A stretch of 64,000 bases of DNA, taken from contig JBAXKC010000002.1 of NCBI GenBank assembly GCA_037137535.1, forward strand, positions 85,186 through 149,185. Direction: 5' to 3'. Below, in pieces: positions 4,256 to 20,722 of this stretch; within the stretch, counting starts at the first letter, position 1, and every line of letters starts with the position of its first letter. Under the pieces are notes generated by a model. The model was given only the letters and a program-made list of their open reading frames with translations, did no database searches and was not told the DNA's origin. Source of the stretch: a bacterium. Its GTDB lineage: Bacteria; Cyanobacteriota; Vampirovibrionia; Gastranaerophilales; JBAXKC01. The position numbers and the translations under genes are program-made.

Positions 4256-4834
4256 ATGAAAAAAATTGTACTTGCAACTTCAAATGCAAAAAAAATAATA
4301 GAAATGGAAAACATTTTAAAAAACTACTCTATAAATGTAGATAAAGTACCTGATACTTTTAATCCAGATGAAACAGGAACTACTTTTGAGGAAAATGCTT
4401 ACATAAAAGCATATGAAGCGGCAAAGTTGACGAATCTACCCTCGTTGGCGGATGATTCAGGATTAGTAGTTGATGCACTTGACGGTAAACCTGGTATTTA
4501 CTCTTCAAGATACGAATCAACCGATGAAAAAAGAATTAATCGTATATTAAACGAATTATCTGAATATAAAAATAATGAGAGAACGGCAAGATTTGTTTGT
4601 GCTATGGCTCTTGTAAAACCTGACGGCGAAACATTATTTTCTTGCAAAGGAATTTGTGAGGGAATTATAACAGCTACACGTTCAGGTAGTGGAGGATTTG
4701 GCTATGATCCTATTTTTCATGTTACAGATAAAAATAAAACAATGGCAGAACTTACATTAGAAGAAAAAAATCTTGTAAGCCATAGAGGCAAAGCATTAAA
4801 ACAAATGTTGGAATGGATGAAAAACAATTTTTAA
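4256..4834 (+). CDS. rdgB: dITP/XTP pyrophosphatase (Ham1 family)
   Basis: LATSNAKK, ETGTTFEENA, DDSGL, GFGYDPIF, SHRGKA; start moved to ATG 4256 just after the uppS stop. Confidence 0.95.
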   Translation: MKKIVLATSNAKKIIEMENILKNYSINVDKVPDTFNPDETGTTFEENAYIKAYEAAKLTNLPSLADDSGLVVDALDGKPGIYSSRYESTDEKRINRILNELSEYKNNERTARFVCAMALVKPDGETLFSCKGICEGIITATRSGSGGFGYDPIFHVTDKNKTMAELTLEEKNLVSHRGKALKQMLEWMKNNF

Positions 4835-4860
4835 ATGAAAGACAATAAAGGGGATGGTAG

Positions 4861-5913
4861 ATGATAAACAGGCTGTTAATAATTTTTATATTGTTAATTT
4901 TTGCTTTTTCAAAGCCTGCATATTCTGAAATAAGCGATAAAAAAATACAAAATATATTTAATACAGGCAGTGCGACGGGTGAGGCTTATTATAATCTCAT
5001 AACGATTTACCAAGGCTCAAGTGTAAATGAAGTTAAATACAATAAACTTAAATTTCAACATGCATTTCAATCTTTAAGTATTATTGATTTAATTTCGGAA
5101 GACTTACAGCTAAGTAATCAATCATTATGTTTATTGAAAAATATAAGATCAAATTTATATGAATCTCTAAATGAAGAAAAAATAAATTACGCGATGTTAG
5201 AGCAAACAATAAAACTGCTTAATCAGTTTTATAACTCTTTTAATCTTGATATAGCTAATTCTTATGGAACAGATTCAGATTGGTATTCAGATTTAGGTTT
5301 TTATTCCTCTTTTCAACTGGAATCAATAAATACAAATAAATCCTCTGCGCTTTTGTTGGACGGTTCACAAAAATTATATGAACAAGTACCTGCAAGCGTA
5401 CCTCAAACATCATCAGAAATGGTTAAAAGTTTAAAAAGTTTTGATAAACCAACACTTACTGTTGATGAAATTCAAGCATTAAAAAATGAGTTAAATTATT
5501 TAATAAGTTATTTTTCCAATTATCCGAATAAAGTTGCTGATAATGCTAATATAAAAGCTTTAAAAGGCTTTTGGCAAGGAATAATGATTAATCCATACGG
5601 ACAAAAATACAATATATCTTTAAACTTTAATGATGTAAACAATTCGAGTCTAACGATAGAAGGCATTGCCTCAAATATACCTCTTGAAAATATTGATTTA
5701 CTTGATAGTTATTTCAGTTTTACCTTTAAACCTGTTGGAACAGAAAAATTCAATGTAAGATTTAACGCTAAAATAAATAACGATATGTTTTCAGGAAATA
5801 TTACAAACTCTCTAAATGAGCAAGGTTATTGGGTTTTAACAAAAACAACAGATAATAAACCTTTATCTTCAGAAAAGATTAACCAGTTAAGCTCATATAT
5901 AAATAAAAATTAA
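4861..5913 (+). CDS. Hypothetical exported protein
   Basis: 350-aa ORF with signal-peptide-like N-terminus (…SKPAYS); beta-rich C-terminal part; no family recognised. Confidence 0.75.
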   Translation: MINRLLIIFILLIFAFSKPAYSEISDKKIQNIFNTGSATGEAYYNLITIYQGSSVNEVKYNKLKFQHAFQSLSIIDLISEDLQLSNQSLCLLKNIRSNLYESLNEEKINYAMLEQTIKLLNQFYNSFNLDIANSYGTDSDWYSDLGFYSSFQLESINTNKSSALLLDGSQKLYEQVPASVPQTSSEMVKSLKSFDKPTLTVDEIQALKNELNYLISYFSNYPNKVADNANIKALKGFWQGIMINPYGQKYNISLNFNDVNNSSLTIEGIASNIPLENIDLLDSYFSFTFKPVGTEKFNVRFNAKINNDMFSGNITNSLNEQGYWVLTKTTDNKPLSSEKINQLSSYINKN

Positions 5914-5918
5914 TAGGC

Positions 5919-6770
5919 TTAACCATTGAGAGTTTTATTAACTAAATCTCTCAATTCCTTAAAAAATATAAGTATTTTAGGAGTTGGTTTGTTGTCATTT
6001 CTTTTAGTTTTTTGATGCTGTACTGCAATTAAATCCGAATATTGTTTGTTTAACTTATTTACTTCATTAAAATAATCAGCTAAATTTCTTTGACTAGTCA
6101 AGGAACCAAAAGCTACTTTTTTATCCGAAATTCTATTAATTGAACCTGTTAAAAACAAGAACTTTCTGTTAATTTCTTTTAAATCATCACTTTTTTTAAC
6201 CATAGGAATACTTCTTCTGAAGTTTTTGCTTATTGGATTTTCGAATACTAAAGTTTTTGCATTATCAGCCCCATTTTTGGCTACACCATATAAATCATTA
6301 AATACATCTGAAATTGCATTAAATTTATCTAGCGTTCTGTATTGCTTTTTATAATGACTTAATTTATCAAGTATTTCAATTCTTCTATTTTCTAATTCAG
6401 TTAATTTTATTTTAGCCGATGACAAATTCATTAATTTTATACTTTGAATTTCACTATCAACTTCTTTGAGTTCTTTTTCAGCTTTTTCAATCATAAACTC
6501 AATCTTTAAACTCTCAGTAGGAAGATGTTGAGCTAGACTGTCATTAATCAAATTTGAATCATAATCATTAATTCTGTTTAAAGTAATGGGATTAGAATTA
6601 TTTTTAGTTTCAACTGAATTTTGATTATTCAAATCCAATAATTTATCTGATACTTCATCCTTTTCTGAAATCAACTCTTGCAAAGTTGGATTTAAGAAAA
6701 AGTTATTATCACTTAATTCATTATTAAATTGTTCAAAATCAGCGAAAAAATTCACCAAAGATCCCCTCAA
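5919..6770 (-). CDS. Hypothetical coiled-coil protein
   Basis: 283-aa ORF with heptad-like central region; true start probably TTG/GTG at 6758/6755 after a GAGGGG RBS. Confidence 0.7.
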   Translation of the reverse strand: MRGSLVNFFADFEQFNNELSDNNFFLNPTLQELISEKDEVSDKLLDLNNQNSVETKNNSNPITLNRINDYDSNLINDSLAQHLPTESLKIEFMIEKAEKELKEVDSEIQSIKLMNLSSAKIKLTELENRRIEILDKLSHYKKQYRTLDKFNAISDVFNDLYGVAKNGADNAKTLVFENPISKNFRRSIPMVKKSDDLKEINRKFLFLTGSINRISDKKVAFGSLTSQRNLADYFNEVNKLNKQYSDLIAVQHQKTKRNDNKPTPKILIFFKELRDLVNKTLNG

Positions 6771-6839
6771 CCTTAAATATATATTTATATTTTCTCAGAT
6801 TAACAGATATTTGTTATCATTCACTGAAATGATTTTATA

Positions 6840-7502
6840 TTATCTACTAAATTTTAAAGAACTTATAGCAGACTTAATATCGACTGCACAATACACATAA
6901 GAGCCTGCAACCAGAGCATTAGCACCCGCATCAACGCACAGTTTGCCCGTATGATTATTAATACCGCCATCAACTTCTATAATCAAATCATTTAAGTTTT
7001 GCTCAACAGCAAGTGATTTAATAAAACTAATTTTATCTAAACTATCATTAATAAAAGATTGTCCGCCAAATCCTGGTTCAACTGACATAATTAAAACTAA
7101 ATCTAATTCTTTAATTAATGTACCAATTTCTTCTATATTAGTTTTAGGTTTAACAGAAAGACCAACTTTAACATTAAAACTCTTAATTAATTGAATAACC
7201 TCAGCAATATTTTCTTTACAGGCTTCATAATGAACAGTGATATAGTCTGCCCCTGCTGAAGCAAAATCTTCAATATAATTTTGTGGATGTTCAATCATCA
7301 AATGAACATCTAATGTCATATCAGTGATTTTTCTTAATGCTTTTACTACAGGAGCGCCAATTGTTATATTGGGAACAAAATGTCCGTCCATAACATCAAC
7401 ATGTACCCAATCTGCTCCAGCTAATTTAATTATATTAATATCTCTTTCAAGGTTTGCAAAATCAGCAGAAAGAATTGATGGCGCAACAATAATATTACTC
7501 AT
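6840..7502 (-). CDS. rpe: Ribulose-phosphate 3-epimerase
   Basis: APSILSADF, HVDVMDGHFVPN, MSVEPGFGGQ, VDGGIN. Confidence 0.98.
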   Translation of the reverse strand: MSNIIVAPSILSADFANLERDINIIKLAGADWVHVDVMDGHFVPNITIGAPVVKALRKITDMTLDVHLMIEHPQNYIEDFASAGADYITVHYEACKENIAEVIQLIKSFNVKVGLSVKPKTNIEEIGTLIKELDLVLIMSVEPGFGGQSFINDSLDKISFIKSLAVEQNLNDLIIEVDGGINNHTGKLCVDAGANALVAGSYVYCAVDIKSAISSLKFSR

Positions 7503-10409: not shown

Positions 10410-10614
10410 ATATACATTTTCCTATTAGCCGTATTTTTACAAAACTTGTTACTATTTTACCCGAAACATAATATTTTTTACCACTATAAAAAAATAACTG
10501 CAATATTATTATTTATGAGAGATAAGATATTATTATATAAATCTTATCATTTATTAGTTTTTTTAGTTGATTTTAAGACAATTAGATAAGATTTAATAAG
10601 TTTTTAAAAAATAG

Positions 10615-10643
10615 TTGCAAAATATTTATTAATTGATTAGAAT
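10615..10643 (+). promoter_or_regulatory. Sigma70-type promoter of the arg operon leader
   Basis: TTGCAA (10615-10620), 17-nt spacer, TAGAAT (10638-10643). Confidence 0.65.
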
Positions 10644-10670
10644 TTAAAGAAAAGAAAAATTCAGGATCAA

Positions 10671-10739
10671 ATGAAATATTTAATTAAAAATAACAATCGA
10701 CGCCAATTACGTAAAGACTCATCAGGAGGCTTATGTTAG
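10671..10739 (+). CDS. Putative arginine-sensing leader peptide (22 aa, MKYLIKNNNRRQLRKDSSGGLC)
   Basis: ATG 10671 preceded by AGGA; Arg codons CGA-CGC (10698-10703) and CGT (10710-10712); TAG 10737-10739; lies between the promoter and a terminator upstream of argC. Confidence 0.65.
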   Translation: MKYLIKNNNRRQLRKDSSGGLC

Positions 10740-10787
10740 GCTGTGTTTGTTATTTTGCCGATACATATATAAAGTTTTTAAACTTTT

Positions 10788-10817
10788 TACCTCCTGTATT
10801 TCAGGGGGTATTTTTTT
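10788..10817 (+). terminator. Attenuator terminator in the arg leader
   Basis: TACCTCCTG-tattt-CAGGGGGTA stem (9 bp, one G-U) followed by 7 T, 44 nt upstream of argC; the 5' arm is also complementary to CAGGAGG at 10723-10729. Confidence 0.8.
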
Positions 10818-10861
10818 GTGTCAATTAAGAATTTTTTATTAAAAATAGGAATAAATAAATT

Positions 10862-11902
10862 ATGTTAACAGTTGGAATAATCGGTGCGACAGGCTATGCA
10901 GGAAGTGAACTTGTAAGAATTTTAGTAAATCATAAAGAAGTAGATAAAATACATTTGGTCTCAAAATCCTATGAAGGTAAGTCATTTAGTGATATTTACG
11001 GAAGTTTTAATAAAATTGTAGATTTTAATTGCCAAAACAGCTCATTAAAAGAACTTTCAGAAATATGTGATGTTGTTTTTCTAGCAATGCCACATGGAAT
11101 TGCAGCCGAAATTATTACGGACGAAATTATCACAAACACAAAGATTATTGATTTAGGTGCTGATTTCAGAATTGATTGTATCGATACTTATGAAAAATGG
11201 TACGAAATTAAGCATAAAGCAGAAAACCTAATTAATAAAGCAATTTATGGTCTTTGTGAATTAAACGCTGCTAAAATAAAAGATTATTCATTAGTTGCAA
11301 ACCCTGGTTGTTACACGACTTGTAGTATTCTGTCATTAGCACCTGCCTTAAAATACAAACTGATAAACACTGAAAACATTATCATAGATGCAAAATCAGG
11401 AGTTTCAGGAGCAGGAAGAAGTTTGAATACAGGTACATTATATTGCGAATCTAATGAAAACCTAAAATCCTATAAAGTTGCTTCTCACAGACATACACCC
11501 GAAATTGAGCAAGAATTGTCAAAAATTAGCGGGGAAAACATATGTTTAACGTTTACTCCTCATTTAGTACCCATGCAACGAGGAATTTTAACAACCTCCT
11601 ACACAAAACTTAAAAATAATAATTCATATCAAGAAATTTATGATGCCTACAAAGAATTTTATCAAGATAACTATTTTATTCGAGTATTAGAAAATGGAAA
11701 AATACCGGAAACCCGATGGGTAAAGAACTCTAACTTTTGTGACATAGGACTAGTATTAGATAAAAGAACTCAAACATTAATCATAATTGGTGCAATTGAT
11801 AATTTAATCAAAGGAGCTTCTGGGCAAGCAGTTCAAAATATGAATATATTGTTTGGATTTGATGAAAAGACAGGATTAGATTTAGTCCCAAGCTTTATTT
11901 AA
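10862..11902 (+). CDS. argC: N-acetyl-gamma-glutamyl-phosphate reductase
   Basis: GATGYAG, ANPGCYTT, DAKSGVSGAGR, HRHTPEI, IDNLIKGASGQAVQNMN. Confidence 0.98.
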   Translation: MLTVGIIGATGYAGSELVRILVNHKEVDKIHLVSKSYEGKSFSDIYGSFNKIVDFNCQNSSLKELSEICDVVFLAMPHGIAAEIITDEIITNTKIIDLGADFRIDCIDTYEKWYEIKHKAENLINKAIYGLCELNAAKIKDYSLVANPGCYTTCSILSLAPALKYKLINTENIIIDAKSGVSGAGRSLNTGTLYCESNENLKSYKVASHRHTPEIEQELSKISGENICLTFTPHLVPMQRGILTTSYTKLKNNNSYQEIYDAYKEFYQDNYFIRVLENGKIPETRWVKNSNFCDIGLVLDKRTQTLIIIGAIDNLIKGASGQAVQNMNILFGFDEKTGLDLVPSFI

Positions 11903-11914
11903 TTGGAGATTATA

Positions 11915-13135
11915 ATGAAAATAATTAACGGCACTATAAATTCACCTAAAGGCTTTAAATCAGCAGGGAATTTTATAGGTATAAAAAAACAAAAAAAAGA
12001 TTTAGCTATAATTTATTCTGAAGTTGATGCAGTAACAGCAGGTGTTTTAACGCTAAATAAAGTAAAAGCCGCTTGCGTAGTCAGAAACCAAGAAATTTTA
12101 AACAGTATTGATAAAATCAGAGCAATTGTAATAAATAGCGGTAATGCTAATGCTTGCACAGGTGAAGAAGGCAAACAAAATAATGTGATAATGGCTCAAA
12201 CATTAGCCAAAAGTCTTGATATTGAAGCTGATAAAGTAATTACTGCTTCAACAGGTGTTATCGGGGTACAATTAGACACAAATATTATAGTGGAAGGAAT
12301 AAAACAATCTGCTAAATTACTTGATATTAACCAACAAGCAGGATTGGATGCCGCTGAAGCAATAATGACGACTGATACTTTTACTAAAAACATTTGCGTA
12401 CAAATAGAAATTGATAAAAAGTTAGTAACTTTAAGTGGTATAGCAAAAGGATCTGGAATGATACATCCAAATATGGCCACTATGCTTGGTTTTATAACAA
12501 CAGATGCTAAAGTTTCACAATCAACATTAAATAATTTATTAAAAGAAATTGTTGACGATACCTACAATATGATTTCAGTTGATGGCGATACCAGCACAAA
12601 TGATATGGTTATTGTTATGGCAAATGGAGCAAGTGAATGTTCTGAAATAACTGAAAATCATTCACAATTTAATAAATTTAAAGAAGCATTTTATTATGTA
12701 AATGAATTTTTAGCTAAACAGATAATTTCTGATGGCGAAGGTGCCACAAAATTTTTAGAAGTATCAATTAGTGGAGCTAATTCAAAAGATAATGCTAAAA
12801 AACTTGCTAAATCAATTATTTCTTCAAGTTTAGTAAAAGCGGCATTTTTCGGTTGTGATGCAAACTGGGGAAGAATACTCGCTGCAATGGGATATTCTGA
12901 AGCTGATTTCAACCCACAAAGCGTAAATATATCTTTTAAAAGTGAAGCAGGCTTAATTGATCTAATGAAAAACGGAGTACCGATAAGTTTTGATGAAGAA
13001 ATAGCTTTAAAAATTCTAAAGCCTAAACATATTAATATTTTAATTTCCTTATCAGATGGAAACCATAAAGCAAAAGCGTGGGGCTGTGACTTAAGCTATG
13101 AATACGTAAAAATCAATGGTGAATACAGATCATAA
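11915..13135 (+). CDS. argJ: Glutamate N-acetyltransferase / ornithine acetyltransferase
   Basis: NSGNANACTG, KGSGMIHPNMATML (autocleavage site), DGDTSTND, DGEGATK; ATG 11915 after GGAG. Confidence 0.98.
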   Translation: MKIINGTINSPKGFKSAGNFIGIKKQKKDLAIIYSEVDAVTAGVLTLNKVKAACVVRNQEILNSIDKIRAIVINSGNANACTGEEGKQNNVIMAQTLAKSLDIEADKVITASTGVIGVQLDTNIIVEGIKQSAKLLDINQQAGLDAAEAIMTTDTFTKNICVQIEIDKKLVTLSGIAKGSGMIHPNMATMLGFITTDAKVSQSTLNNLLKEIVDDTYNMISVDGDTSTNDMVIVMANGASECSEITENHSQFNKFKEAFYYVNEFLAKQIISDGEGATKFLEVSISGANSKDNAKKLAKSIISSSLVKAAFFGCDANWGRILAAMGYSEADFNPQSVNISFKSEAGLIDLMKNGVPISFDEEIALKILKPKHINILISLSDGNHKAKAWGCDLSYEYVKINGEYRS

Positions 13136-13149
13136 ATAAAGGCAGAAAA

Positions 13150-14010
13150 ATGCATAAATACATTGAAAAAGCTAAAATATTAATCGAATCATTGCCATAC
13201 ATAAAGAAATTCAATGGTAAAACAGTTGTAATTAAGTATGGCGGAAGTGCAATGCTTAATGAAAATCTTAAAAAAGCTGTTATGCAAGATATTGCACTGA
13301 TGAAACTGGTTGGAATAAGACCTGTAATTGTACATGGAGGTGGTCCTGAAATAAATTCACTCTTAGAGAAAATCGGTAAAAAAGCTGAATTCATAGATGG
13401 ATTAAGAGTAACAGACGACGAAACAATGGAATGCGTCGAAATGGTTTTAGCAGGAAAAGTCAATAAATCAATAGTAAATCACCTTTTAAATATCGGCGGA
13501 AATGCTGTAGGAATAAGCGGAAAAGATGCAAATATTATTGAAGCGGAAAAAAAATTAGTAAACGGAAAAGATGTGGGATTAGTTGGTGAAGTGAAAAATG
13601 TTAATCCACAACTGATAAACACGCTTATAGAAAGCGACTTTGTCCCTGTAATAGCTCCTGTCGGCAGAGATAAAATAGGCTTAACCTATAATATCAACGC
13701 TGATTATGCAGCTGAAGCCATAGCAGTTGCTCTAAATGCTGAGAAATTAGTATTTTTAACTGACGTAGAGGGAGTTTTAATGAATAAAAATGACTCTTCT
13801 TCTCTAATTTCTTCCTTAAAAGTAAATACCTCTGAAAAATTGATTGAGGCAAAAATTATTCAAGGCGGAATGATACCAAAAATTGAGTGTTGCAACAGAG
13901 CCGTTAAAAATGGTGTTAAAACAGTTCACATTCTTGACGGAAGAGTTGAACACAGTCTTTTACTGGAAATTTTTACGGAAGCAGGCATTGGGACAATGAT
14001 AGAGGAATAA
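13150..14010 (+). CDS. argB: Acetylglutamate kinase
   Basis: VIKYGGSAM, VHGGGPEI, GLRVTD, NINAD, GGMIPK. Confidence 0.98.
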   Translation: MHKYIEKAKILIESLPYIKKFNGKTVVIKYGGSAMLNENLKKAVMQDIALMKLVGIRPVIVHGGGPEINSLLEKIGKKAEFIDGLRVTDDETMECVEMVLAGKVNKSIVNHLLNIGGNAVGISGKDANIIEAEKKLVNGKDVGLVGEVKNVNPQLINTLIESDFVPVIAPVGRDKIGLTYNINADYAAEAIAVALNAEKLVFLTDVEGVLMNKNDSSSLISSLKVNTSEKLIEAKIIQGGMIPKIECCNRAVKNGVKTVHILDGRVEHSLLLEIFTEAGIGTMIEE

Positions 14011-14012
14011 TT

Positions 14013-15191
14013 ATGCAAAATCTTATTGAAAAAAGTAAAAAATATAAAATGAATACTTATGCCTCGTTTGATATTGTACTGGAAAGTGGTAATGGAAGTA
14101 CATTAAAAGACATTAACGGCAAAGAATACCTTGATTTTGTATCAGGGATAGCTGTTAATAGTCTGGGATACGGTCAGACAGACATATTAAAAGCATTAGT
14201 AGGACAAGCTTGCATGCTTACGCACTGCTCAAATCTATATTTAAACTTAAATGAAATTGAGCTTGCGGAAAAACTTGTTGAAAATTCTTGTTTTGACAAA
14301 GTCTTTTTCTGTAACAGCGGTACAGAATCTGTTGAAGCCGCTATAAAATTAGCAAAAAAATATGGTAAAACACAAAAAAATATAGATACACCTGAAATTA
14401 TAAGTATGAAACAATCTTTTCATGGAAGAACACTTGGTGCTCTAACTGCAACAGGGCAAGATAAATATCAATCAAGTTTTACTCCTTTGTTAAGTGGCTT
14501 TAATTATGCAGAATTTAATAATATTGAATCAGTTAAATCAATAATAAATGAAAAAACATGCGCTGTCATAATTGAAATTATTCAAGGTGAAGGCGGGATT
14601 TTACCAGCTACAACTGATTTTATTAAAGAACTAAGAGAAATTACGCAAGATAAACATATTTTATTAATAATAGACGAAGTTCAAACAGGAATTGGCAGAA
14701 CAGGCAAACTTTTTGCTCATCAGCATTACGGAATAGAACCGGATATTATGACTTTAGCTAAAGGCTTAGGTGGTGGAGTTCCAATAGGTGCAATGCTTGC
14801 GAAAGATTTTGTCGCTAATTCTTTTATAGCAGGCGATCATGCTTCAACATTCGGTGGAAATCCTCTTGCTTGTGGAGCAGCCATTGCTGTACTAGATAAA
14901 ATATTATCCGATTGTTTCTTCGATGAAGTTAAAGCAAAAGGTCATTATCTTAAAGAGCGATTATTAGAATTAAATATCGAAAATACGGAAGTTCGAGGAA
15001 TGGGACTAATGTTTGGAATGGAGTTTTCTTTTCCAGTCAAACCAATTATAGAAAAATGCATAGAAAACGGATTATTATTGATAGGAGCAGGTGCCAACGT
15101 TATAAGGTTTGTACCTCCTCTGATAATAGAGTTTGAAGAGATTGATAAAGCAGTAGATATACTGCAATCTGCACTTTTGGAGATTAAATAA
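14013..15191 (+). CDS. argD: Acetylornithine aminotransferase (class III PLP)
   Basis: FHGRTLG, DEVQTGIGRTG, TLAKGLGGG, STFGGNPLA; operon context. Confidence 0.95.
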   Translation: MQNLIEKSKKYKMNTYASFDIVLESGNGSTLKDINGKEYLDFVSGIAVNSLGYGQTDILKALVGQACMLTHCSNLYLNLNEIELAEKLVENSCFDKVFFCNSGTESVEAAIKLAKKYGKTQKNIDTPEIISMKQSFHGRTLGALTATGQDKYQSSFTPLLSGFNYAEFNNIESVKSIINEKTCAVIIEIIQGEGGILPATTDFIKELREITQDKHILLIIDEVQTGIGRTGKLFAHQHYGIEPDIMTLAKGLGGGVPIGAMLAKDFVANSFIAGDHASTFGGNPLACGAAIAVLDKILSDCFFDEVKAKGHYLKERLLELNIENTEVRGMGLMFGMEFSFPVKPIIEKCIENGLLLIGAGANVIRFVPPLIIEFEEIDKAVDILQSALLEIK

Positions 15192-16261
15192 TGAAAGCAA
15201 ATATATTACTAGAAGATGGAACAGTTCTTCAAGGTAAATTTTTTGGAAAAGTGGGAACAGCATTCGGAGAAATCGTTTTTAATACAGGAATGACGGGCTA
15301 TCAAGAAGTATTAACTGATCCTTCTTATGCTGGACAAATTGTTGTAATGACATATCCGTTAATTGGAAGTTATGGCACAAATAATAATGATATTGAATCA
15401 AAAAGTCCTAAAGTAAACGGTTTCATAGTAAAAGAATACGTAAATGACTGCTCTAACAGGAAATCAGATCAAAACTTATCAGATTATCTTGAACAAAATA
15501 ATATTGTAGCTGTATATGACCTAGACACAAGAATGTTAACCAAAAAAATCAGAAATCAAGGTGCGATGAAGTGCTTAATAACAAATGAAACCCTGAGTGA
15601 TTGGCACACAATCTCACTTCAAAATTATAGCTTTCCATCTGATGTAGTAAGTCAGGTTTCGCAAAAAGAAGTTACGAACATCAGCGGAACAGGCAAAAAA
15701 ATAGCTTTAATTGACCTTGGTATAAAGAATGGAATAATTGAAAACTTTAAAAGATTAAACTGCGATATAACAGTTTATCCACATGATGTTACTGCGGATA
15801 CTATTTTAAATAATGATTATGGTGCAGTATTCTTTTCAAATGGCCCTGGAGACCCAAAAGAAGCTAAAGAAGCGATAACAGCGGCAAAGCTCTTAATAGG
15901 AAAAATCCCTGTTTTTGCAATTTGTTTAGGTCAACAAATTTTGGCTTTAGCATTAGGTGCAGATACTTACAAGATGAAATTCGGACATAGAGGGGCTAAT
16001 CATCCAGTTATTGATGTAAGAACAAATAGAGTAATGATTACTTCTCAAAATCATGGTTATGCCGTTAAAGGTGAAACCTTACCAGATAACATAAAAATTA
16101 CTCACATAAATGTAAATGACGAAACAATTGAAGGTTTTTATTCGACCGAGTTGAATATTCATTCCGTTCAATTCCACCCTGAAGCTGGCCCTGGACCAGA
16201 TGATGCCTGTTATATATTTGACGATTGGATGAAATTACTGGAGATTGAACAAAATGCCTAA
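15191..16261 (+). CDS. carA: Carbamoyl-phosphate synthase small subunit
   Basis: [32 protein letters not shown]. Confidence 0.98.
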
Positions 16262-19200
16262 AAATAACGATATAAAAAAAGTTCTGGTAATTGGCTCAGG
16301 ACCAATAATAATTGGACAAGCTGCTGAATTTGATTACGCAGGTACTCAAGCCTGTAAATCTCTGAAAGAAGAAGGTATTAAAGTTATTCTTGTAAATAGC
16401 AACCCTGCAACAATAATGACCGATGATAACATTGCAGATAAGGTTTATATTCAGCCGATAAATGTACAGGCAATAGAATATATTATCAACAAAGAAAGAC
16501 CTGACGGACTTTTGCCGACTTTAGGCGGTCAAACAGGCTTAAATATGGCGGTTGAGCTTAATGAAGCAGGAATATTAGAGAAATACAACGTAAAACTTTT
16601 AGGAACGTCCTTAGATACAATTAAAAAAGCAGAAGACAGAGAAAGTTTTAAAGAATTAATGCAGGAAATAGGCGAGCCTATACCAAAAAGCAAAATTGTT
16701 GAAACTCTGGAAGATGGTTTAGCTTTTGCAACTGAAACAGGTTATCCTCTAATAGTAAGACCAGCTTATACTCTTGGCGGAACAGGAGGTGGTATAGCCT
16801 TTAATGAAGGAGAACTAAAAAAAGTTTTATATTCTGGATTAATGCACAGTAGAATAAATCAGGTTTTACTTGAGCAAAGCGTTGCAGGTTTCAAAGAAAT
16901 AGAATATGAAGTAATGAGAGATTCTAATGATACTTGCATTGTCATCTGTAACATGGAAAATCTTGATCCTGTCGGTATTCATACAGGTGATAGCATAGTT
17001 GTTGCACCATCACAAACGCTAAGAGATGAAGAATATCAAATGTTGAGAAGTTCTTCAATTAAAATAATCAAAGCCTTAAAAATCGAGGGAGGCTGTAATG
17101 TTCAATACGCATTAAATCCCGATTCACTTGAGTATTTCGTAATTGAAGTAAACCCGAGAGTCAGCAGATCATCTGCTTTAGCATCAAAAGCGGCAGGCTA
17201 TCCAATTGCTAAAATTGCTGCAAAAATAGCAATTGGTTTACATTTACACGAAATACCGAATTACGTTACAAAAAAAACTAAAGCCTCTTTCGAGCCTGTA
17301 TTAGATTATATAGTTACTAAAATTCCTAAGTTTCCTTTTGATAAATTTTCTTATGCTGATAAGACTCTTGGTACTCAAATGAAAGCTACTGGAGAAGTTA
17401 TGGCAATAGACAGGACTTTTGAAAGTTCTTTTCTTAAAGCTATGATTTCACTTGAAGGCGGAGAAACAGGTTTAAGAAGAACTTATTTATCAGAAATGAG
17501 CGATGAAGAAATTCTGGAAAGCCTTAAAGAAATAACTGAGTGCAGAATTTTAAACGTAGCAGAGGCTTTAAGAAGAGATATTTCGATAGAAACAATATAT
17601 TCTATTACGAAAATTGATAAATGGTTTTTAAATAAACTTAAAAACATTACAAATATGGAAAACAGGCTAAAAAGAGAACTTTTAACGGCTAATTTATTGA
17701 AAACGTGTGAAGCAATGGGCTTTACGGACAATGAAATATGCGAACTCTCAGACGAACCGCTCGAAGTATTAGACACTCTTAGAAGAGTTTACAACCTTTA
17801 TCCTGTCTATAAAATAGTTGATACTTGCGCAGGCGAATTTGAATCAGCAACACCATACTATTATTCAACCTATGAACAAGAAGACGAAAATATAATCAGC
17901 AATAGGGAAAAAGTTATAGTAATTGGTTCAGGACCTATAAGAATTGGACAGGGCATTGAGTTTGATTATTGTTCAGTACACGCAGCATGGGCTATTCAAG
18001 AAGCTGGACATGAGTCGATAATAATTAATAATAATCCAGAAACAGTTAGTACAGACTTTGATACAGCTGATAAATTATATTTCGAGCCTTTATATATAGA
18101 AGATGTATTTAACGCAATAAGAAAAGAAATGCCCAAAGGAGTAATTGTACAATTTGGCGGACAAACTGCTATTAATCTTGCTCCTAAACTTCTTAAAAGA
18201 GGCGTTCAGATACTTGGAACATCAGTTGATTCAATAGATGTAGCAGAGGATAGAAAAAGATTTGAAAGATTATTAAGAGAGCTTGGAATACCACAACCTA
18301 ACGGAACAGCAGTAACAAACCTTGAAGATGCCGTAACAGCCGCAGAAACTCTAGGTTATCCCGTATTAGTAAGACCTTCTTATGTAATAGGCGGAAGAGC
18401 AATGCAAGTTGTGCTCTCAAAAGAAGAGCTTATTTTATATGTTCTTGAAGCAGCTTCATTATCTGATGAACATCCGATTTTAATTGATAGCTATATAAAA
18501 GGTAAAGAAGTCGAAGTTGATGCAATATCAGATAGAGAAAATATCTTAATCCCAGGAATAATGGAGCATATAGAAAAAACAGGAGTTCATTCAGGGGACA
18601 GCATAACCGTTTATCCGACACAAACTCTTTCTAGAAATGTAATTGATAAAATGATTGGTTATACAGAAAAAATTGCAAAAGCACTTCAAGTAATAGGACT
18701 AATGAATATTCAATTTGTCGTAAAAGATGAAGATGTTTTTGTAATCGAAGTTAATCCTAGAGCCTCAAGAACGGTGCCAATTCTAAGTAAAGTAACTAAA
18801 GTTCCTATGGTTAATATTGCAGTAAGAACAATATTGGGCGAAAAGTTAAAAAATATGGAATACGGAGTCGGCTTAATGCCCACAAGCAATCTTGTAGCAG
18901 TAAAAATACCAGTCTTTTCCTTTCAAAAACTTCATGGTGTCGATGTAGCATTAACACCTGAAATGAAATCAACTGGAGAAGTATTAGGAGTTGCTGAAAA
19001 TTATGAAGAAGCCTTATTAAAAGGCTTTATGGGAGCTGATTATAAGTTTTTCAACGGCGGTAAGATTTTAGTTTCTATTTCAGATAATGATAAAGAAGAT
19101 TTAATAGTACCACTTAAAAAAATAATTAAAAAAGGTTTTAAGGTAGTAGCAACACAAAAAACTTACGAATATTTAAAATGCAATAATATTGACACAGAAG

Positions 19201-19460
19201 TGATTGATATAGAAAATATTGACGAAATAATAAATAAAATCAAATCGGGAGAAATAAATTTAGTTATCAACACACCTACATTAGGAAAAAATCCTAAAAG
19301 AGCAGGATTTAAAATAAGGCAGGCTGCTCAACAATATAAGATACCGACATTTACATGTATTGATACTTTTGATGCTTACATAAAAGCATTAACAGCTTAT
19401 CAAAATAAAGATAAATTAACATTTGAAACTATTGATTACTACATAAAAGGAGAAAAATAA
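16254..19460 (+). CDS. carB: Carbamoyl-phosphate synthase large subunit
   Basis: [17 protein letters not shown], duplicated ATP-grasp domains (EVNPRVSRS / EVNPRASRT), C-terminal MGS domain; ATG 16254. Confidence 0.98.
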
Positions 19461-20674
19461 TGAAAAAGAAGGTAGTTCTTGCATACTCAGGCGGACTTGA
19501 TACTACGGTAATTATTCCATGGTTAAAAGAAAATTATGATTATGATGTAATAGCCGTTTGCGTTGACTTAGGACAAGGAACTGAAACAGAAGGCTTGGAA
19601 GAAAAAGCTATATCAACAGGCGCAAGTAAATTCTTTTTAGTAGATGTTAAAGATGAATTCGTAACTGACTATATTTTCCCGACATTAAAAGCAGGGGCGA
19701 TATATGAAAATAGATATTTACTCGGAACTTCAATGGCAAGACCTTTAATTGCAAAAGTATTGGCGAAAATTGCAATTGAAGAAGGCGCAGAAGCGATTTG
19801 CCACGGTGCGACAGGCAAAGGTAACGATCAAGTTAGATTTGAACTTGGAATTAAAGCATTTGCTCCAAATATGAAAATAATTGCTCCTTGGAGAATGTGG
19901 GATTTAAAATCAAGAGAAGATTTAATAAATTATTTACAAAAGAAAGGTATAAATTTACCTTTCAGAGTAACTGAAAGTTACAGCAGAGATAAAAATTTAT
20001 GGCACTTAAGTCATGAAGGTTTAGAGCTTGAAGATCCATCAGTTGAACCTGATTACGAAAAGATTTTACAAATAGCAGTACCTCTTGAAAAAGCATCAGA
20101 TACACCTGAATATGTTGAACTTGAGTTTATAAAAGGTATTCCTGTAAAACTTAACGGTGAAGAAGTTTCACCCGTTGAATTAATTAAACAACTTAATATT
20201 ATTGGCGGAAGACACTCAGTTGGACTTACTGATTTAGTCGAAAACAGAGTTGTAGGAATAAAAGCCAGAGGAGTTTATGAAAATCCGGCTGGAGCTGTAT
20301 TATTCTTTGCTCATGAACAACTTGAACATATTTGCCTCGACAGACAAACCTACTCTTTCAAGCAAAATGTAGCTAACAGGTTTGCAGAGCTTACTTATGC
20401 AGGTGAATGGTTCACATTACTAAGAGAATCATTAAGTGCTTTTATTGATTACACTCAGCTTACAGTAACAGGTACTGTTAAACTTAAACTTTTCAAAGGA
20501 AATATAATTCCTGCTGGCACAACTTCACCGTATTCTTTATATGATGAAAGCCTTGCAAGCTTTACAACCGGCGATTTATACAGCCACAAAGACGCAGAAG
20601 GCTTTATTAATCTGTATGGTTTACCAATTAAAGTCAGAGCCTTAATGTCCGAAGCTAAAGGTTTATTGATTTAA
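19460..20674 (+). CDS. argG: Argininosuccinate synthase
   Basis: [39 protein letters not shown]. Confidence 0.98.
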
Positions 20675-20688
20675 TTATTCCATTCAAT

Positions 20689-20722
20689 AAAAAATGGGCT
20701 TATGTTAAAAGCCCATTTTTTT
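20689..20722. terminator. Bidirectional intrinsic terminator
   Basis: AAAAAATGGGCTT-atgttaa-AAGCCCATTTTTTT between convergent genes. Confidence 0.85.

Follow-up and report, generated by a model that had tools for sequence, protein, structure and literature searches.

A predicted ribosome-mediated transcription attenuator in front of the arginine operon of Gastranaerophilales

The arginine operon argCJBD-carAB-argG of a Gastranaerophilales genome is preceded by a leader which, on modelled folding, very probably acts as a classical ribosome-mediated transcription attenuator sensing charged tRNA-Arg(ICG). This reading is supported by the sequence elements of the leader, its folding geometry, its conservation among relatives, and searches for ArgR and T-boxes that found neither. 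As far as sequence can test, the leader has every structural feature of a trpL/hisL-type attenuator and lies outside all Rfam families; it is best read as a real and conserved element, an arginine-specific version of a known device. Arginine synthesis is a textbook repressor-controlled pathway, and it is generally described as one that does not use attenuation. Searches of the open literature found no arginine-biosynthesis attenuator. A first-pass annotation of the window (the whole 64,000-nucleotide stretch analysed) had proposed trp-style attenuation here, and conservation and geometry, with no ArgR or T-box found, favour that proposal, subject to the folding model.

The window belongs to a genome of 31% GC and 100% completeness. 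The leader lies within the 452-nt gap that separates pyrH (minus strand) from argC (Table 1). Downstream the gene order is argC-argJ-argB-argD-carA-carB-argG, and all seven genes exceed their own NCBIfam cut-offs, in agreement with the operon first proposed. The genome carries carAB in single copy (15191..19460 being the sole pair found), and no pyrB was found in it, the sole pyrB-profile match being argF itself; arginine-only control of carAB is therefore coherent, with no competing pyrimidine demand. As the genome has no aspartate carbamoyltransferase match except argF, de novo pyrimidine synthesis may be missing, which would leave carAB to arginine. The genes argF and argH are located elsewhere in the genome, and no uORF-terminator leader stands in front of either. 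The AT-rich 200 nt between pyrH and the arg promoter (10410-10614) are the expected site of a divergent pyrH-frr-cdsA-rnc-rpe promoter; the promoter scan of this interval called none.

Table 1 Features of the argC leader and operon (positions in the window)
Feature	Position	Strand	Basis
Candidate sigma-70-type promoter, -35 TTGCAA	10615-10620	+	sequence
Candidate sigma-70-type promoter, -10 TAGAAT (17 nt after the -35)	10638-10643	+	sequence
Weak candidate Shine-Dalgarno CAGGA of the uORF, behind an A-rich stretch	10662-10666	+	sequence; inferred
Leader ORF (uORF), 22 codons, ATG 10671 to TAG 10737-10739	10671-10739	+	sequence
Control codon Arg10, CGA	10698-10700	+	sequence
Control codon Arg11, CGC	10701-10703	+	sequence
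Control codon Arg14, CGT	10710-10712	+	sequence
Protector (1:2) hairpin, -17.7 kcal/mol, encloses the antiterminator arm	10687-10756	+	predicted fold
Protector outer helix	10687-10696/10747-10756	+	predicted fold
Protector inner helices	10709-10714/10731-10736; 10718-10720/10726-10728	+	predicted fold
Segment 2, antiterminator 5' arm CAGGAGG	10723-10729	+	sequence and folding
Segment 3, terminator 5' arm and antiterminator 3' arm (CCTCCTG 10790-10796)	10788-10796	+	sequence and folding
Predicted intrinsic terminator, 9-bp stem 10788-10796/10802-10810, -13.3 kcal/mol, U7 10811-10817	10788-10817	+	prediction
argC, first regulated gene	10862-11902	+	TIGR01850
argJ	11915-13135	+	NCBIfam profile
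argB	13150-14010	+	NCBIfam profile
argD	14013-15191	+	NCBIfam profile
carA	15191-16261	+	NCBIfam profile
carB	16254-19460	+	NCBIfam profile
argG	19460-20674	+	NCBIfam profile
Probable terminator of the operon, stem near 20694-20716 followed by a T run	feature end 20722	+	judged by eye

The elements named in the first-pass annotation lie where it had placed them: the promoter, the 22-codon uORF with its clustered CGA-CGC-x-x-CGT, the CAGGAGG segment complementary to CCTCCTG, and the GC-rich terminator followed by seven T. The promoter, however, is not above chance when taken alone (3 promoter-like sites observed against 6.2 expected); a similar promoter-like match lies 7-40 nt ahead of the uORF in 21 of the 28 uORF-bearing leaders of the order. 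Transcription probably starts near 10650. The Shine-Dalgarno candidate of the uORF is short and closely spaced to the ATG. A second ORF starting after CAGGAGG was dropped, as it is not conserved. No Rfam family matched at gathering score over the whole window, including any riboswitch or T-box that might have explained the leader otherwise. A relaxed search of the leader returned eight weak matches, all far under threshold; the best, Phe_leader (20.2 bits against 55), covered the terminator part only. The leader stays under the covariance-model gathering thresholds of the His, Trp, Thr, Leu and Phe leader families and of known riboswitches.

Shuffling served as a chance control. Dinucleotide shuffles of the leader contained an ORF of 12-36 codons with adjacent CGN codons in 235 of 20,000 cases, and the duplex of CAGGAGG with the terminator 5' arm (-12.4 kcal/mol) was equalled by 0 of 200 shuffles. 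Genome-wide, 1,132 leaders are at least 130 nt long and 75 of them have a terminator near the gene; among these 75, a Shine-Dalgarno-led uORF occurs in three and a tandem-CGN uORF in a single one, that before argC.

The CGN codons of the uORF had been contrasted with the prevalence of AGA nearby, and genome-wide counts bear this out. In the long ORFs of the genome AGA accounts for 15,569 of 21,895 Arg codons (71%) and CGN for 19.3%. The 80 Arg codons of the arg operon comprise 75 AGR, 5 CGA and no CGT or CGC, and it is the only one of 234 blocks with no CGT/CGC (median 12%). Isoacceptor-charging theory expects biosynthetic enzymes to avoid a starvation-sensitive tRNA, and an arg operon without CGT/CGC is what this would produce. 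The avoidance is not general, being absent from several leader-bearing relatives. The tRNA-Arg genes of the genome comprise a single ACG, beside CCG and TCT; a deaminase-family match in the genome may be TadA.

To model the switch, the leader was folded as nascent RNA ending in the terminator loop, with the ribosome represented as an unpaired block of two alternative footprint lengths. When codon 10, 11 or 14 occupied the A site, the modelled probability of the antiterminator pairing, P(2:3), was 0.90-0.99 at either footprint length. It was 0.00 without a ribosome and with the ribosome at codon 6, at codon 18 or at the stop, and it depended on the footprint at codon 8 (0.00/0.58) and codon 16 (0.36/0.00). 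The antiterminator was thus predicted only with a ribosome near the Arg codons, and, as P(2:3) is high at both footprints only at codons 10, 11 and 14, the permissive window matches these codons. In this leader, the modelled 2:3 pairing is exclusive with the terminator, segment 2 being exposed while a ribosome occupies the control codons and masked once it reaches the stop.

Two points of the original proposal need amendment. It held that a stalled ribosome leaves CAGGAGG free; the modelled pairing agrees, but the segment is not free by default, since it is held in a protector hairpin that the proposal had overlooked. In the model of the leader without translation the protector is present and no 2:3 pairing arises, so a stalled ribosome must open the hairpin, and an untranslated leader should terminate. 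The proposal also held that a ribosome at the stop covers CAGGAGG and the terminator forms. The covering agrees with the model; the complete terminator, however, wins at equilibrium in every ribosome state (3:4 P=1.00), and on this model the switch would therefore have to be kinetic.

We propose the following mechanism, in which translation of the uORF, pausing, coupling, kinetics and the arginine response are inferred. RNA polymerase would start near the position given above and a ribosome would load on the uORF. When Arg-tRNA is scarce, the ribosome would wait with CGA, CGC or CGT in its A site, covering the 5' arms of the protector and leaving segment 2 uncovered. CAGGAGG could then pair with the emerging CCTCCTG, the terminator could not nucleate, and argCJBD-carAB-argG would be transcribed. 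When arginine is ample, the ribosome would pass codon 16-18 to the stop and cover segment 2, and the protector would re-form after release. Segment 3 would then be free, and the 3:4 terminator would halt transcription near 10811-10817. An untranslated leader would be terminated too.

To evaluate conservation of the leader, relatives were compared. Within the order argC was found in 44 of 401 genomes, and the leader of the first arg gene was examined in 42 of these, leaving out G215 (leader cut by the contig end) and G229 (a fragment). A uORF with CGN codons plus a terminator was found in 28 of the 42 leaders and in six of seven families: f1 (1/1), f4 (3/3), f6 (1/3), f10 (2/2), f9 (2/2) and f3 (19/19), with none in f5 (0/12). 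An automatic rule found 23 of the 28 and made 2 false picks; 5 uORFs were picked by hand, and two leaders have weak terminators (-6.5). The leader precedes argC in 14 genomes and argF in 14, that is, whichever gene begins the operon. In all 28 uORFs the first CGN codon lies at position 10-15. CGA, CGC and CGT, the codons that the one tRNA-Arg(ACG) of the window's genome reads, make up 79 of the 81 CGN codons in these uORFs. The encoded peptides are 15-35 residues long and unconserved outside the Arg codons, with L or I before the first Arg in 20 of 28.

Several particulars of these leaders and loci were noted. TTG, behind a Shine-Dalgarno-like or A-rich stretch, is the start codon of eight of the 28 leader ORFs (L044/L045, L025, L027-L031, L035-L037), a feature that may tune ribosome loading. 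In three (L033, L034 and L041, from G167, G129 and G140) the Arg uORF begins 7 nt after the -10 box, probably a case of leaderless translation. In one locus (L011, G003) some 210 nt of additional DNA, which may be an inserted repeat, separate the terminator from argC. The argG leaders were searched in f5 (0/12) and in G005 and G020, and no attenuator was found. In the f5 genomes (L008, L012-L014, L016-L023, L177-L197) the arg genes are scattered, argJ follows argC in most, and neither ArgR nor an argC/argG attenuator was seen.

The leader extends beyond the order. In f12, which belongs to another order, it occurs in 5 of 13 genomes, one operon start being cut off; in these five, segment 2 begins 20-24 nt past the first CGN codon and the duplex p-values are 0.005-0.045 (5/5). 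Altogether 33 genomes of two orders have a leader with CGN codons at a fixed position, the remaining sequence having diverged. No convincing leader was found outside the class among argC-first leaders (109 loci scanned, 63 with a leader of at least 100 nt). The rule fired in ten: two repeat G020 and G003, three are f12 leaders, and five (L082, L100, L108, L118, L156) were set aside because the geometry was lacking.

In several families the RNA pairing is apparently retained while its letters change. Segment 2 starts 20-26 nt past the first CGN codon in f1, f4, f6, f9, f10 and f12. In f1, f4, f6 and f10 its AGG(A/T)GG arm falls in three different reading frames, suggesting that selection acts on the RNA. 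Unrelated letters take its place in other families, and they keep the ability to pair with the terminator arm of their own leader (TGGTGTG in f9; CTCGGGG or GCCCGGC in f12). Judged by eye, the protector outer helix recurs with other letters in the leaders of G016, G018 and G020; the automatic DNA alignment left G016/G023 one base out of register. Conserved pairing with changed letters is clear in f1, f4, f6, f9, f10 and f12 and weak in f3.

The strength of the modelled switch varied among leaders. With a ribosome at Arg, the pairing of segment 3 was above the mean of the shuffles in all 28 leaders (p<=0.05 in 12/28). P(Arg) minus P(stop) was at least 0.3 in 26 of 28, and the full three-state switch appeared in 14. 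The plain 2:3 duplex reached p<=0.05 in 9 of 28; many f3 leaders, from the gut, have a weak antiterminator. When terminator arms were paired with their own and with other leaders, the own leader was best in 2 of 15 groups (mean -9.0 for own against -6.6 kcal/mol for other). As the relatives are not independent, owing to kinship, all p-values here are descriptive.

These data bear on the idea that the terminator is real but answers to a protein or to some unknown riboswitch, or else is leaky and constitutive, the uORF and the complementarity being by-products of a segment 2 that is Shine-Dalgarno-like and repeats segment 4. AGGAGG is indeed a Shine-Dalgarno-like word, and cross-pairing between leaders often equals own pairing. 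However, a CGN uORF has been kept at a fixed position in both orders while the other sequence diverged, segment 2 does not resemble a Shine-Dalgarno in f9, in f12 or in most leaders of f3, it is not followed by a conserved ORF, and Rfam offers no match. We regard this explanation as extremely unlikely.

The unconserved peptides likewise argue against a nascent chain that responds to free arginine, ornithine or citrulline inside the exit tunnel, in the manner of SpeFL, TnaC or the fungal arginine attenuator peptide, with the stall position setting the RNA fold. Their lengths vary and the downstream RNA motif lies in differing frames. The choice of CGA, CGC and CGT over the dominant AGA points to the tRNA and not to the peptide, and an arginine-induced stall at these codons would switch synthesis on when arginine is plentiful. 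Such an arrest is very unlikely, even though tandem Arg at about codons 11-12 resembles Arg12-Arg13 of Salmonella orf34 (PMC6386406) and the residue before the first Arg is so often L or I.

A third alternative is that slow decoding of CGA-CGN sets a fixed read-through, or that the leader responds to translation stress at large, antibiotic stalling at Arg/Lys motifs included, instead of to arginine supply. CGA-containing Arg-Arg pairs de-attenuate the Salmonella his leader in rich medium, according to PMC4046918; 16 of the 28 leaders in our set have CGA as their first control codon, and CGN is the minority Arg codon class in the window's genome. Set against this, 9 of the 28 leaders begin with CGC, a fast codon in the same source, Arg is never replaced by another slow codon type, and the uORF before argC contains no R/K-x-R/K motif. 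The element is, moreover, specific to arginine genes, tracks whichever gene, argC or argF, opens the operon, and alternates with ArgR in f12. This alternative is unlikely, and the tRNA-sensing attenuator remains our reading.

Searches for the usual arginine regulators returned nothing in the window's genome; the first-pass annotation had likewise seen no T-box or convincing ARG box in the leader. ArgR domains (PF01316, PF02863) were not found in it, the controls being positive in 9 and 8 of 14, and none of the 44 argC-bearing genomes of the order has an ArgR over cut-off. A genome search with the T-box model RF00230 found none (control positive in 5/14), and the promoter has no site within two mismatches of an ARG-box consensus. 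Within f12, ArgR was present in 0 of 5 leader-bearing genomes against 6 of 8 others, with three genera on each side. In two genomes argR lies directly ahead of argG-argH-argF-argC (G496, L173:3829-4329; G502, L170), possibly as an acquired operon; Arg-rich frames before argG in these two were rejected as off-frame readings of argR (profile-checked in G496).

Two other leader-like regions were seen in the window's genome. A metK-like leader uORF (contig C9, minus strand, upstream of 82587) was rejected because, judged by eye, it sits in a SAM-I-like riboswitch with a terminator. On contig C4 (minus strand, about 6760-6920), a promoter-like site, a good Shine-Dalgarno, a uORF of 28 codons that includes a run of codons for Met and Cys, and a strong terminator lie upstream of a 676-codon ORF (4707-6737) encoding an unannotated protein with an FKG motif at its N-terminus, a candidate Met/Cys or metal-sensing attenuator.

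The fungal arginine attenuator peptide (arg-2/CPA1) is a case of uORF control that includes the arginine-pathway carbamoyl-phosphate synthase, a likeness to the argC leader. It differs in being eukaryotic, translational, dependent on peptide sequence, and stalled by excess arginine. ArgR/AhrC and Arg T-boxes would share target genes and logic with the leader (on when arginine is short); neither was found in this genome.

Among bacterial leader peptides, the mechanism of a 1:2 protector, 2:3 antiterminator and 3:4 terminator is described in PMC2659441. The argC leader resembles trpL, hisL, leuL, thrL, pheL, ilvL and the cysS leader uORFC-8-2 (PMC8632094) in its short uORF with cognate codons, its predicted 1:2/2:3/3:4 folds and the biosynthetic operon behind. 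Unlike these classical attenuators it would sense arginine, has no sequence or Rfam relation to them, carries only 2-5 control codons, has segments 2 and 3 about 60 nt apart, and resides in a non-photosynthetic relative of cyanobacteria. No arg entry was found in passages of PMC8632094 or in one of its supplements.

Arginine-sensing leader peptides have been described in other settings. The speF leader orf34 of Salmonella and E. coli (SpeFL, DUF2618) controls speF through an Arg12-Arg13 uORF, Rho and RNase G; as proposed for the argC leader, two consecutive Arg codons (12-13) sense arginine by ribosome pausing and switch RNA structure (PMC6386406). In that account, however, orf34 controls ornithine decarboxylase, and so polyamines, via Rho, occlusion of the RBS and RNase G, and the core of its peptide is conserved, whereas the argC leader has a predicted intrinsic terminator before arginine synthesis and an unconserved peptide. 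Compared by eye with the DUF2618 core given there, our peptides are unconserved beyond Arg and lie upstream of argC or argF, not speF. In Staphylococcus aureus rbfL, leader-peptide Arg codons report arginine limitation through tRNA charging, as proposed for the argC leader; by contrast rbfL has AGA/AGG codons, works at the level of translation initiation, is repressive when arginine is limiting and has a biofilm regulator as its target (PMC13009471). Of two further papers, PMC1262725 reports that no RNA element was found ahead of actinobacterial arginine operons and refers to T-boxes for arginine, and PMC10325894 models a CGG effect inside argA.

A joint reading, which we offer tentatively and rate somewhat below an even chance, is that arginine attenuation in Vampirovibrionia is old, class-wide and ArgR-free. 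Codons of tRNA-Arg(ICG) would serve as the starvation sensor of the leader, the enzymes would be written in AGA so that they are still made under starvation, and lineages acquiring argR would have lost the leader or never had it. A conserved Arg-tRNA attenuator would extend to arginine the list of amino acids that leader peptides monitor. The leader provides a motif for annotating genomes of uncultured bacteria from gut and freshwater and, as a 200-nt part, may be usable as an arginine sensor in a laboratory strain. For the organisms themselves, such an attenuator would explain how the arg operon is regulated in Melainabacteria that lack ArgR.
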